Under the pieces are notes generated by a model. The model searched no databases. It was not told the DNA's origin and saw only the letters and a program-made list of their open reading frames with translations. Below are positions 823-5,346 of a stretch of DNA of 31,069 bases, one piece after another (the stretch's first letter is position 1; each line of letters opens with the position of its first letter). Both the position numbers and the translations under genes were made by a program. This DNA comes from a virus (lineage: Duplodnaviria > Heunggongvirae > Uroviricota > Caudoviricetes), in IMG/VR virus record IMGVR_UViG_2778261543_000009, positions 1-31,069 of that record. The stretch is one strand, 5' to 3'.

Positions 823-1416
823 TTATTCTCCATGTACTCGTTCACTGCTAACCGTCATTTCTCTGATTGAGCGTAAATCCTCCAGCCCATCCAGCACGTC
901 CTTCATCTGTCGCTGACGCCGATAAATTTCATCGTTGCGGTTAACTTGCGCCCGTGCCATTGCTGTAGCCAGGTCTTCAAGCTCTGGCATCGACAGTTTC
1001 ACCTGTTGATTATCAGCGTCGCCCCACGCAAGGGCGGTTCGTGCCGTATCAGATTTTGCAGCCATTACCACCGGATAGAGACGGGCCAGTGAGTCTGGGC
1101 CAGCATTCCAGGTACGACCGTTCCATTCGAACGTGAACGGCTGCGCCTCCTGTTCTGTACGCCACACCTCGATTTCCCGCTTTTTGGCATCTTTTGCCGC
1201 TGCGATAAGTTCCGGCGTGACGGTGAACGGGGCGATTTCACCCCATTTGCCGCTCTGTAACTCCTCCCAGATGCACTGGCCTGTCATTGCGGTATCATCC
1301 TGCATGGCGGTATACGGGACGAATTCCGTTTCACCTTCAAATAACACCTCGCAGTCAACCGCACCATTTTCGAGATAATGCGCGTTTCTGATGCCCTTTA
1401 CCGCTCTGATTTTCAT
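823..1416 (-). CDS. Tail fiber assembly chaperone (Tfa family), second copy
   Basis: 197 aa, immediately downstream of a tail fiber gene; internal FEWNGRTWNAGPD resembles the lambda Tfa segment EYQKWNGTAWVKD (recalled from memory); ATG start checked in sequence. Confidence 0.6.
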   Translation of the reverse strand: MKIRAVKGIRNAHYLENGAVDCEVLFEGETEFVPYTAMQDDTAMTGQCIWEELQSGKWGEIAPFTVTPELIAAAKDAKKREIEVWRTEQEAQPFTFEWNGRTWNAGPDSLARLYPVVMAAKSDTARTALAWGDADNQQVKLSMPELEDLATAMARAQVNRNDEIYRRQRQMKDVLDGLEDLRSIREMTVSSERVHGE

Positions 1417-1430
1417 GTCTTATTTCCCCG

Positions 1431-3389
1431 TTACTCGATACGCACAAACAGGCATGTTAAAGCCCCGTTGGTAGCCACGCCGCTGTAACCGGACAGCGCC
1501 ATATAACGCCCCGGAAAACTGTAGCTGCCTGCACCATAAACTGTAAGTTGTGCTGAATAGGTGTATGAGCCCGTCTCACTGAACATGGATGCGATACGAA
1601 CCGGCCCCAGACGGGACCCCGGCACCACGTCGCCCAGACCAATTTTTATGGACGTATCACCCGTCTCAGTTCCCTGATATGCCGCCAGTATTGGCACACC
1701 AACCGCCGGATATTTGTAATATGAGCCTGAGCCTGCTGTCCGGGAGAGTAAGAACGCCAACGAATCGCCGTCGTAAATGACAGGGCTTACTGTTGCATTC
1801 CAGTTGTTTCCACTCCAGCGGTAAGTCAGGCGATGAATGCTGTGTTCGCCTTCGTAATACTGGTTAAAACACAGCAACGTTTTGAATTTACGCGTGGCGT
1901 CCGATTCATCGTTATCAAAGGGCGACCACATCACATCAATGATGCCGTTAAATTTTGTGGTGCCCGCCAGCAGCGTGGAAGAGTCCGCAATACTGACCGC
2001 ATAACGCCCCGGCGTGGACTCTTTCAGCCATTCAGCAAAATCGGCCTGACCGTTAAATGTCAGGGCTTCGGTGTTGGCAAATGCCTGACCGAACCCATGC
2101 ATGCCCGACAGTGCCAGCCTGCCTGGTGTGCGATCGCGGAAATTGCTCTGGGGCTCCATCGTCGCAGCCTCTTTCAGTTCAAGTTCCGTGCGCATGGCTT
2201 CAGGTGTGTCCAGTGCCAGTAATGCGCGGGCTTTTTCTGACAGCTGCGCCAGTAAAATCCGGCCCTCTGCACTGAAATAAGGCAGTGTGTTTTCTTTCGG
2301 TGTTATCTGGCTGACAGCCGTTAACACGTCATTAAGCGGCTGTTTACCTGCCAGTGCATTAGTGACCGTTGTCGCAAAGTTCGGGTCATTGCCCAGTGCC
2401 GCTGCCAGTTCGTTCAGCGTGTCCAGGGCTTCCGGTGATGAGCCAACCAGCGCGGCAAGCAGTTTGCGGACAAACTCCGCATTGGCTATTTCATTACCTG
2501 CTGCGTCATCCGGCGGGGTTGGTGTTGTCGGCGTGCCGGTGAACGCCGGGCTGTCCAGCGGCGCTTTTGTTTTCGTCTCGTCCATGACGGTTTTGACGGC
2601 CTTCGGTGTGGCTGCCAGTTCTTCGCTGTCGTTATCCGTATCACTACAGAGTTGCACCAGGCCTTTTTCTGTCGTGGAAGCATTGCTTCCCTTCAGGTCA
2701 TCAACTATCCGTTGCGCCTCGTCCCTGTGCTGTTTCGCACCCTGCTCGCTTTTTGCAGCCGCTTCGGCGCTGGCTTTTGCCTCACCGGTCAGCGTTGCGG
2801 CATCAGCAAGTTTATCGACCGCTTTCTGGACTATCGCGTCAGCATCCTTGACAGCCTGTTCTGCGCGGGCGGCATCCTGTGTGGCAGATGATGCCAGCTG
2901 TGCCACCTGCTTTTTATCTTCGGCAACGGCTTCTGCATTCTGCTGTACGTTATCCGCCAGCGTCTCGCAGTCGCTCTTGATTTGTTGCGCATCAGCGACA
3001 TGTTGCCCGGCCTGTTGTTCGCTTTCCGCTGCCGCTTCCGCGCTCTGCTGCGCCTGCGCCACCATTTCCTCAAAGCGTTTCACTACATCCGGCTTTAAAT
3101 CGCCTTCATCAAGGGCAGTCAGAAAGTCGTTCAGCGTGCCGGGCCTGGAGTCGTCGTATACAGCAATGTCGCCAACACAGTACTCGTCGCGCCAGTCCTG
3201 TTTCAGATATACGCAATATTTTCCGGTCTGCGCCTTAAAACAGTACTCGCCACAGTTTCCTGTCACCACGTCGGCAACTGTGCGCATCACCACTTCTGAG
3301 GTGTTTACCCGGGATTTCAGAATTATGTGGCATCCGGACATGGGGATGCCTGCGCCATCTATCAGCGCACCTGATATCACTACAGACAT
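1431..3389 (-). CDS. Tail fiber protein (second fiber), with Ala/Glu/Gln-rich coiled-coil shaft
   Basis: 652 aa; Cys-containing N-terminal domain, long low-complexity repetitive shaft (residues about 100-230), NEIANAEFVRKLLAAL-type motif, Gly/Ser/Tyr-rich C-terminal domain typical of receptor-binding fibers; followed by a Tfa-like gene. Confidence 0.7.
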   Translation of the reverse strand: MSVVISGALIDGAGIPMSGCHIILKSRVNTSEVVMRTVADVVTGNCGEYCFKAQTGKYCVYLKQDWRDEYCVGDIAVYDDSRPGTLNDFLTALDEGDLKPDVVKRFEEMVAQAQQSAEAAAESEQQAGQHVADAQQIKSDCETLADNVQQNAEAVAEDKKQVAQLASSATQDAARAEQAVKDADAIVQKAVDKLADAATLTGEAKASAEAAAKSEQGAKQHRDEAQRIVDDLKGSNASTTEKGLVQLCSDTDNDSEELAATPKAVKTVMDETKTKAPLDSPAFTGTPTTPTPPDDAAGNEIANAEFVRKLLAALVGSSPEALDTLNELAAALGNDPNFATTVTNALAGKQPLNDVLTAVSQITPKENTLPYFSAEGRILLAQLSEKARALLALDTPEAMRTELELKEAATMEPQSNFRDRTPGRLALSGMHGFGQAFANTEALTFNGQADFAEWLKESTPGRYAVSIADSSTLLAGTTKFNGIIDVMWSPFDNDESDATRKFKTLLCFNQYYEGEHSIHRLTYRWSGNNWNATVSPVIYDGDSLAFLLSRTAGSGSYYKYPAVGVPILAAYQGTETGDTSIKIGLGDVVPGSRLGPVRIASMFSETGSYTYSAQLTVYGAGSYSFPGRYMALSGYSGVATNGALTCLFVRIE

Positions 3390-3958: not shown

Positions 3959-3960
3959 TG

Positions 3961-5346
3961 TTAAACACTCGCCACGTTATACCAGGTGCCATTAATCAGT
4001 TTCTGAAGCGGACGGTAATACACGCCGCCGATGTTATCTGCCGAATTACTTCCGGTTTCCTGCACATTAATACCGGATAACCCGTGGCCTGAAGGTGAGC
4101 GAAATGTCCAGGATATCTGGTTACCTCCCGGGTTGTAATACATTTCGGAACCATAACGCACATCCTGCACGCCGCCTGTTTTGGTCTGGTAACGGGCATC
4201 AAAGTTTCCATAGTCTGACGGTGTTACCCGTCCTGTAACGTTTACAGCTTTATTACTCTGGATACTGCCACTCTGAAAACGCAACACATGCACGCTATTG
4301 GCATAAACATCCAGCAGGCCATCACCATTCTGTTTCAGGCCGGTATCGTTATCCCCGAAAGCAATTGAGTTTCCGCCCAGTGCGTTCTGAACGCCGATAC
4401 CTAATGCACCGTTTACTTTCGAGCCGCCGCCAACAGATACCGGGTGAGACATTGAAACTTCACCCGTCCGCAGGTTAATGCTGAACGGTCGCAGTGGGCC
4501 AATATCGCCGTTTTCGCCCTGGTTTTCCTGGGTGGGAATGAGGTGCAGGCTCTCTTCCGAACGACGAAAAATCAGACCAAAGGCTTCGTTGAAAATCCTC
4601 AGCGCATTAACACCACGGATTTTCAGTTCCCCGGTCATCAAATCACCAGATTTTTTTACATATCGCAGATCAAAATCTGAATAGATATTTCCAGGGTTTA
4701 TCACACTGAAATAGCTTTTCTCGCTATCAAGAAGGCAAATCAAAGGAATACCCTTAATGATATCATTCGCCACCAGCTCGGACTTGTTCCCCTTATAAAG
4801 TGGGAACGTACCAAGAACCTTTCCGCCTAGTGTTAGTTGAAGTGTCGCCGCGTTGGTATTGTTCTGAACGGGGAAAACGATAATCGGGGTTCGTAGCGTC
4901 CAATCTGTACCCTCATTAACAAAAAACGTCGAGGGAAGTTCCAGCGTCAGTGTGTTTGCAGTGCCACCAGCAACACCCGCAATATAATGACCGCTCTGAA
5001 GCTGCGCAATCTGTACGAAATAGTTTTCCGATCCACGCGTGGCAAAGTTAGCCACAACGTCATTAAGGGACCAACCTTTCGCGGTTGTTCCTTCCTGCCC
5101 ACGAATGACTTTCAGCACATCACCGCTTACCGATACCAGGTGACAAATCTCAAATGCAGACTCTTTATTATCGGTAAGCGTAATTTTTGCATAGACGCGT
5201 TGCCCGTTCGATTTATTTTCAAAATCGGCAGAAAGCAATTTTGCAAATTTAGCTCCCGTGCCCGGCATCACCGGAATATCAGTCTGAATCGTCGTAATAT
5301 CACCAGCCAGTGCTGAAACAACGTTATTGCCGAAACCAAGAATCAT
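3961..5346 (-). CDS. Tail fiber protein (first fiber)
   Basis: 461 aa, Gly/Asn/Ser-rich beta-type composition; directly downstream of the gpI-like baseplate gene with an ATGA start/stop overlap (5343-5346) and followed by a Tfa gene. Confidence 0.65.
   Translation of the reverse strand: MILGFGNNVVSALAGDITTIQTDIPVMPGTGAKFAKLLSADFENKSNGQRVYAKITLTDNKESAFEICHLVSVSGDVLKVIRGQEGTTAKGWSLNDVVANFATRGSENYFVQIAQLQSGHYIAGVAGGTANTLTLELPSTFFVNEGTDWTLRTPIIVFPVQNNTNAATLQLTLGGKVLGTFPLYKGNKSELVANDIIKGIPLICLLDSEKSYFSVINPGNIYSDFDLRYVKKSGDLMTGELKIRGVNALRIFNEAFGLIFRRSEESLHLIPTQENQGENGDIGPLRPFSINLRTGEVSMSHPVSVGGGSKVNGALGIGVQNALGGNSIAFGDNDTGLKQNGDGLLDVYANSVHVLRFQSGSIQSNKAVNVTGRVTPSDYGNFDARYQTKTGGVQDVRYGSEMYYNPGGNQISWTFRSPSGHGLSGINVQETGSNSADNIGGVYYRPLQKLINGTWYNVASV

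Follow-up and report, generated by a model that had tools for sequence, protein, structure and literature searches.

The window analysed here is a stretch of 31,069 nucleotides from a virus of the Caudoviricetes (IMG/VR record IMGVR_UViG_2778261543_000009, positions 1 to 31,069), and our subject is the group of four tail fibre and fibre-chaperone genes that it carries on the minus strand at 823–5346. On the strength of the operon structure, the different anchor domains of the two fibres, and the conservation of the genes, we think it fairly probable that the late operon ends in two independent fibre-plus-chaperone modules, that both fibres are carried on one virion, and that there is no switching between them. 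Both modules would be read one way from one transcript. The first—fibre 1 and a chaperone of the Tfa family—would be the backbone's own baseplate fibre, with an N-terminal half that fits that baseplate. The second—fibre 2 and a protein with a DUF4376 domain—would be an accessory fibre of the lambda Stf type that was acquired by recombination and is mounted through its collar domain at a virion site other than that used by fibre 1. A particle would carry both at once, the baseplate fibre being essential and the lambda-type side or collar fibre dispensable. Prophages would exchange the C-terminal, receptor-binding parts together with the respective chaperones as cassettes, with the anchor domains remaining constant.

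Phages with two receptor-binding structures include T4, which has long and short fibres, and phiTE. They are also familiar from lambda, with J and Stf (PMC12617516), and from XM1 (PMC10457771). The present locus would be a clean, well-delimited example of a fixed baseplate fibre combined with an optional lambda-type side fibre, each fibre having its own chaperone class and exchanging its receptor-binding end independently.

Organization of the tail fibre locus

The four genes are complete, tightly spaced open reading frames (ORFs) that together fill 823–5346. A sequence-only reading of this DNA had described two complete fibre-plus-helper pairs in direct tandem and in the same orientation; the ORFs bear this out, and the limits it gave agree exactly. 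Reading along the minus strand, a baseplate J-like gene (5953–7179; matches to Pfam Baseplate_J and phrog_6) is followed directly by a gene for a 208-amino acid baseplate protein (5343–5969; phrog_8212, E 1.6e-119), the stop codon of which overlaps the start of fibre 1 by 4 nucleotides. Next on the same strand come fibre 1 (461 amino acids, 3961–5346; PHROG E 1.8e-124, Pfam gp37_trimer), chaperone 1 (Tfa, 181 amino acids, 3413–3958; PHROG E 1.1e-59, Caudo_TAP E 3e-23), fibre 2 (652 amino acids, 1431–3389; PHROG E 3e-212, PF08400 [phage_tail_N] E 8.7e-62, PF03406 [Phage_fiber_2] E 1.5e-15), and chaperone 2 (the DUF4376 protein, 197 amino acids, 823–1416; phrog_1141 E 6.3e-86, PF14301 E 3e-15). 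The family matches of all four genes are far beyond chance, and the successive gaps from the baseplate gene through fibre 1, Tfa and fibre 2 to the DUF4376 gene are −4, 2, 23, and 14 nucleotides.

The 23-nucleotide spacer between chaperone 1 and fibre 2 (3390–3412, minus strand) holds a ribosome-binding-like GAGAAA motif and no promoter-like site, and a promoter scan of the minus strand between the two pairs found none. One weak terminator-like match lies between the pairs; such matches are not above chance, with 13 found as against 9.2 ± 3.0 in shuffled sequences. The four fibre and helper genes are probably co-transcribed with the baseplate genes, and the late operon probably stops at a GC-rich hairpin (759–777; 8-bp stem, 3-nucleotide loop) between the convergent DUF4376 gene and an ORF at 1–750. 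A T-run follows this hairpin on the plus strand, and the hairpin is not among the sites listed by the terminator scan.

The two fibre and chaperone pairs

Fibre 1 consists of a backbone-specific N-terminal anchor (amino acids 1–229, 4660–5346) and a Mu S-like C-terminal receptor-binding half (amino acids 230–461, 3961–4659), with PHROG coverage by phrog_25419 over amino acids 1–254 and by phrog_6859 over amino acids 226–461. Among PDB sequences the C-terminal half matches Mu fibre S (5yvq_A, E 1.2e-12) and the short tail fibre of phiTE (9cuy_c, E 4.5e-16), and it is 75% identical to L54 of phage phiP27; the N-terminal half is 62–63% identical in Serratia-type relatives and is absent from phiP27. 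Chaperone 1, which starts 2 nucleotides past the fibre 1 stop, matches PF02413 (Caudo_TAP) with 82.8 bits against a curated cut-off of 22.1 and aligns with Mu U over 158 residues (PDB 5yvq_B, E 9.9e-38). By its sequence it is a member of the Tfa family, of the Mu U or lambda Tfa type. The pair resembles Mu S/U and P2 H/G in three respects: the C-terminal half of fibre 1 aligns with Mu S, chaperone 1 aligns with Mu U, and the fibre genes lie directly after baseplate wedge genes. It differs from Mu S/U in that the window lacks gin, an invertible G segment, and an S'/U' cassette on the opposite strand, and the N-terminal anchor is unrelated.

Fibre 2 begins with a collar or anchor domain (amino acids 1–94, 3108–3389), and PF08400 is matched over the full domain (residues 1–134) with 207.5 bits against a cut-off of 26.6. 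An Ala/Gln-rich region at about amino acids 100–235 aligns with the coiled coil of gp40, the collar spike of the Vibrio myophage XM1; beyond it are the Phage_fiber_2 motif (amino acids 238–277, 2559–2678) and a variable C-terminal part (amino acids 401–652, 1434–2189). Residues 1–93 match the collar domain of lambda Stf (PDB 9e7m; E 6.2e-17, 45% identity), residues 1–197 match XM1 gp40 (PDB 7kjk; E 2.5e-10), and no solved structure is related to the C-terminal part. With lambda Stf (Ur-lambda) fibre 2 shares the homologous collar, the Ala-rich, coiled-coil-aligned region, and then the Phage_fiber_2 motif, as well as the character of an accessory, dispensable fibre with its own chaperone downstream. 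The two systems differ in that the window virion is predicted to be contractile-tailed and in that the helper is a DUF4376 protein and not a Caudo_TAP protein.

Chaperone 2 begins 14 nucleotides past the fibre 2 stop and matches PF14301 with 57 bits against a cut-off of 25 (residues 73–177). Its Pfam matches are to DUF4376 only and not to PF02413, it has no relative among PDB sequences, and its similarity to chaperone 1 is insignificant (BLASTP E 0.42). Judged by its DUF4376 domain and by this lack of similarity, it is a different kind of protein and not a Tfa-family member. The helpers had been described as two divergent Tfa proteins, which is right for chaperone 1 and has to be amended for chaperone 2. 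The two fibres are likewise dissimilar (BLASTP E 0.59), and because there is no significant similarity either between the fibres or between the helpers, gene duplication was ruled out as the source of the second pair.

A precedent for the function of chaperone 2 is gp27 of Alteromonas phage V22, a DUF4376 protein that was shown experimentally to be a chaperone needed for functional fibre gp26 (PMC7289586) and that does not stay in the mature fibre complex (PMC7289586; PMC10579305). Both here and in V22 the fibre gene is followed immediately by one for a DUF4376 protein of about 195 amino acids; the resemblance is confined to the DUF4376 domain, however, and the V22 fibre lacks a PF08400 anchor. 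By analogy with gp26/gp27, and from the co-variation given below, chaperone 2 is probably the cognate chaperone of fibre 2.

Co-variation among related loci

A set of 80 viral contigs was gathered through the 208-amino acid baseplate protein and scored by tblastn. Co-variation is given as Spearman's rho over these loci; the loci are mutually related, so the p-values are nominal. The N-terminal half of fibre 1 varies with the baseplate protein across the 80 loci (rho 0.86), the C-terminal half of fibre 1 varies with Tfa (rho 0.62), and the C-terminal part of fibre 2 varies with the DUF4376 protein (rho 0.59, n=22). The crossed pairings give rho values of 0.08 for the C-terminal half of fibre 1 with the DUF4376 protein and −0.19 for the C-terminal part of fibre 2 with Tfa. 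This is the pattern that two independent fibre–chaperone modules would give. Fibre 1 is open in all 46 of the loci in which integrity was scored (440–625 amino acids), fibre 2 is open (465–1,047 amino acids) or reaches the contig end in 37 of the 46, and the spacer before fibre 2 is 23 nucleotides long in 39 of 43 measurable loci.

These comparisons also bear on the notion that the genes encode a single branched or jointed fibre, with fibre 2 docking on fibre 1 or on a chaperone 1 that is retained at the fibre tip. Models for a jointed fibre are found in branched tailspike systems and in the proximal and distal half-fibres of T4. The only virion components that the window has in common with phiP27 are the C-terminal half of fibre 1, Tfa, fibre 2, and the DUF4376 protein, as a jointed fibre would have it, and Mu Tfa is reported to stay at the fibre tip (cited in PMC7289586). 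The collar domain, however, shows no co-variation with Tfa (rho 0.12) or with the C-terminal half of fibre 1 (rho 0.26), and its identity holds at 86–99% while that of Tfa drops to 35–41%. Moreover, the homologous domain in lambda and XM1 binds tail or neck rings and not another fibre, and fibre 1 already has a complete receptor-binding tip of the Mu S type. We regard a branched fibre as improbable.

Search for a fibre switch

Mu Gin and K-12 PinR were used as tblastn queries (E 1e-4 to 1e-5), and no match was found in the six frames of the 31-kb window or in the 80 related loci; as a positive control, both queries match Mu gin. Pfam scans of the flanking ORFs found no recombinase, and in the closest relative the chromosome to the left of the window goes on with uspF and ompN and shows no invertase. 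The best match in the window to the 26-bp Mu gix site has 9/26 mismatches, as compared with 8–10 in shuffled sequence, and the longest inverted repeat in 1–9500 is 32 nucleotides at 75% identity. Every match to a fibre or chaperone within the window falls on the minus strand, with no fibre or chaperone cassette on the opposite strand. By these searches the window has no invertible tail-fibre switch of the Mu/P1 type. A diversity-generating retroelement and phase variation were also ruled out, the direct repeats being at most 28 nucleotides long and no tandem repeats or long homopolymers having been found.

That neither an invertase nor crossover sites are visible here had been noted from the letters of the sequence, and the searches bear out both points, the one on the invertase in the 80 loci as well. 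The comparison then drawn with the alternating fibres of Mu and P1 does not apply, because one fibre is of the baseplate class and the other of the lambda-type side fibre class, and they are not versions of one. The sequence-only reading proves correct for the most part, though it casts what is an ordinary accessory side-fibre module as a Mu-type switch that may have gone missing. It is still conceivable that the fibres alternate by means of a switch that these searches missed, with an invertase encoded elsewhere or with phase variation, and Mu, P1, and several cryptic prophages of K-12 do switch fibres (pinR adjoins stfR-tfaR in Rac). With both pairs complete and in one orientation, with no invertase in the 80 loci, the window or the flanking chromosome in the closest relative, and with no gix-like site, inverted repeat, tandem repeat or long homopolymer, we consider such a switch very improbable indeed.

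Distribution of the double fibre cassette

The same four-gene order is deposited for phiP27 (L54–L57), Escherichia phage Rac-SA53 (tail1–tail4), and pPE4 (gp67–gp70), and in these three phages the cassette closes the late operon, with its genes on a single strand and the attachment site next to it. The double fibre layout is already known, and it is ordinary because it had already been deposited for phiP27 and Rac-SA53. The closest deposited relatives of the window are Rac-SA53 and Actinobacillus phage vB_Apl-pPE4, with 93–96% identity over about 77% of the backbone. Protein identities between the window and the three phages are 75–89% for fibre 1, 42–91% for Tfa, and 71–79% for the DUF4376 protein, and residues 1–94 of fibre 2, the collar, are 96–100% identical. 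The differences are in the C-terminal parts of both fibres, with fibre 2 ranging from 490 to 1,061 amino acids and fibre 1 from 332 to 505 amino acids, and phiP27 has in addition a wholly different head, tail, and baseplate module. The record for vB_Apl-pPE4 (PP818812.1) matches the E. coli-type prophage along most of its length at 92–96% identity, and its stated Actinobacillus host looks doubtful. The phage called 'P27' in PMC12502783 is a different phage and not phiP27.

The junction of Tfa and fibre 2 is present, at a coverage of at least 80%, in 88 of 5,426 complete E. coli genomes, and the prophage backbone is also present in many E. coli chromosomes. The copies in E. coli W and SC418 are 92–95% identical, and in SC418 the corresponding prophage end adjoins uspF and ompN, which is the Rac attachment region. 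In some E. coli genomes (for example NZ_CP035812.1) the match falls under a Tfa gene that directly adjoins a DUF4376 gene, which suggests cassette variants in which the second fibre has been lost or rearranged.

Among the 80 contigs, the loci with a baseplate protein at least 91% identical to that of the window form an E. coli-type clade, and all 45 with enough sequence (45/45) carry the N-terminus of fibre 2. Of the Serratia-type loci, in which the baseplate protein is 70–79% identical, 14 have pair 1 only and one has both pairs; in genomic relatives from Serratia, gtrABC-type genes come next after the fibre and Tfa genes, on the opposite strand. Because these 14 judged loci of the same backbone carry pair 1 only, the second pair looks to have been added to a backbone that ancestrally had one fibre. 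The contig NZ_JBNNOB010000016.1, labelled Sphingomonas sp., holds a prophage that differs little from those of Serratia (76% versus 77% identity to the baseplate protein), perhaps through mislabelling or contamination. In Arsenophonus nasoniae a distantly related backbone has two tandem fibres of 310 and 408 amino acids followed by a single Tfa (10817–13402 of that locus). The anchor domain at the N-terminus is the same in these two fibres, which also have a Gp53-like C-terminus; they would represent another route to two fibres, one in which both would have to compete for the same docking site.

Mobility of the cassette

When the window was compared by tblastx with the whole phiP27 genome, similarity was found only at 850–4660 and in the lysis genes, and there was no match in the head, neck, tail or baseplate region. 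The shared block starts at residue 230 of fibre 1 and runs through Tfa and the N-terminal part of fibre 2 to the DUF4376 gene, and residues 1–94 of fibre 2 are 100% identical to phiP27 L56. In SerU-LTIIb, a partial lambdoid record, the distal part of the second fibre has 46% identity and the helper 78%. One of the explanations first offered for the second pair was horizontal exchange, and the comparisons support its gain by exchange or recombination, since it is missing from the 14 Serratia-type relatives and present in phiP27 on an unrelated backbone. The boundaries mapped here—4660, the 3390–3412 spacer, and approximately residues 135–223 of fibre 2—could guide the engineering of host range.

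The Rac prophage of K-12 occupies the same chromosomal site and carries stfR-tfaR-pinR. The second pair was considered as a remnant of this prophage and the idea was rejected, because over the N-terminal 202 residues StfR reaches no more than 35% identity and there is no DNA-level similarity; PinR is also absent.

Proposed docking of the second fibre

The collar domain of fibre 2 has relatives with two solved modes of attachment. In lambda, twelve copies form a circle around the gpV/gpM tube junction and hold four trimeric fibres (PMC12617516), and in XM1 the neck carries six gp40 trimers, bound to the head-completion and tail-terminator proteins (PMC10457771). The window encodes a sheath (15755–17092; phrog_205, E 1.7e-52) and the baseplate J-like protein, so that the site used by the lambda 12-mer is unlikely to be exposed; it would be hidden by the sheath. 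Since the sheath would cover the lambda site on the tube, a position at the neck or on another exposed ring, as for XM1 gp40, is favoured for fibre 2. XM1 shares with the window phage a contractile tail and two receptor-binding structures (the baseplate tailspike gp18 and the neck-mounted collar spike gp40), and the N-terminal immunoglobulin-like domain of gp40, which is followed by a trimeric coiled coil, is homologous to the N-terminus of fibre 2. It differs in that the C-terminus of gp40 is a tailspike, and in that gp40 is seen mounted at the neck, where fibre 2 is only predicted to sit. When 14 concatenated baseplate, tail, neck, and capsid proteins of the window were compared with PDB sequences, the central spike alone was matched (to phi92 gp138), and no XM1 chain was.

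A broader proposal, which we put forward tentatively as a possibility, is that the collar-anchored side fibre is a backbone-independent plug-in, used on two contractile-tailed phages without a recognisable shared neck, tail or baseplate protein, and likely to sit on a neck ring as in XM1. If this is true, temperate E. coli myophages carry neck-mounted, exchangeable host-range fibres that are borrowed from lambdoid phages.

Several points weigh against a virion that carries both fibres. The lambda collar wraps a bare tail tube, and a sheathed tail lacks that exposed site. It is hard to see how a sequence-specific partner could account for an identical collar on two backbones that have no recognisable neck, tube, sheath or baseplate protein in common; either the contacts are with structurally conserved features of a ring, or fibre 2 goes unused in one of the two phages, and the question raised is how an identical collar domain attaches to unrelated contractile tails. 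Fibre 2 is cut to 33, 87 or 147 amino acids in nine of the 46 loci and is therefore at least dispensable, a pattern that resembles the loss of Stf from lambda, the laboratory strain of which lost this fibre by frameshift and stayed infective (PMC12617516). To these are added the nominal standing of the p-values noted above and the result of a literature search on the fibre biology of phiP27, Rac-SA53, and pPE4, which found nothing relevant.

The same points lend themselves to a reading in which fibre 2 and its chaperone are a hitch-hiking lambdoid side-fibre cassette, perhaps transcribed and not assembled, and kept mainly as a substrate for recombination. The family of the collar domain is found overwhelmingly in lambda, lambdoid, and other long-tailed phages, and the cassette occupies the extreme end of the operon, where relatives hold accessory genes such as the gtr genes in Serratia; the truncations fall on fibre 2 and never on fibre 1, and the one collar domain is found on two unrelated backbones. 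Against this, most relatives keep a long fibre 2 frame together with an intact chaperone, the 23-nucleotide junction is conserved, the C-terminal part of fibre 2 co-varies with its chaperone as a working pair would, and the myophage XM1 is a case in which a collar-type domain serves to attach a fibre to a virion with a contractile tail. A hitch-hiking cassette is on these grounds rather unlikely, and we prefer the reading in which both fibres are assembled on the particle.

Other features of the prophage

The window as a whole is a prophage with a contractile tail, encoding baseplate, hub, central spike, tape measure, sheath, portal, terminase, and holin proteins and a GH108 lysin, and its tape measure carries a transglycosylase domain. 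The tube gene lies at 15300–15743, and small neck or tail proteins are encoded at 18023–19385. The match to the central spike gp138 of phi92 (E 2.6e-4) is by a 237-amino acid protein at 9891–10604 on the minus strand. Within the baseplate gene cluster there is an island of low GC content (0.35–0.40) at 7222–8871, which encodes a 248-amino acid minus-strand protein with a weak, sub-threshold match to LprI and, on the plus strand, an AntA antirepressor; the same spot holds other genes in Rac-SA53, pPE4, and SC418.

Just upstream of the small terminase gene, at 27217–28933 on the minus strand, a gene for a TET-associated glycosyltransferase family protein (PF20691, E 1.3e-35) overlaps one for a protein with a ParB N-terminal domain. 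This block is approximately 96% identical in several vB_EcoS phages and one Salmonella phage, and may be a DNA-modification module.

The plus-strand ORF at 1–750, which is convergent with the DUF4376 gene, encodes 249 amino acids, has a GC content of 0.40, and has no Pfam or PHROG match; a homologue is named 'Zygote formation protein zyg1' in RefSeq. It is probably cargo at the prophage end, since its homologue in E. coli SC418 lies between the last fibre gene and uspF.

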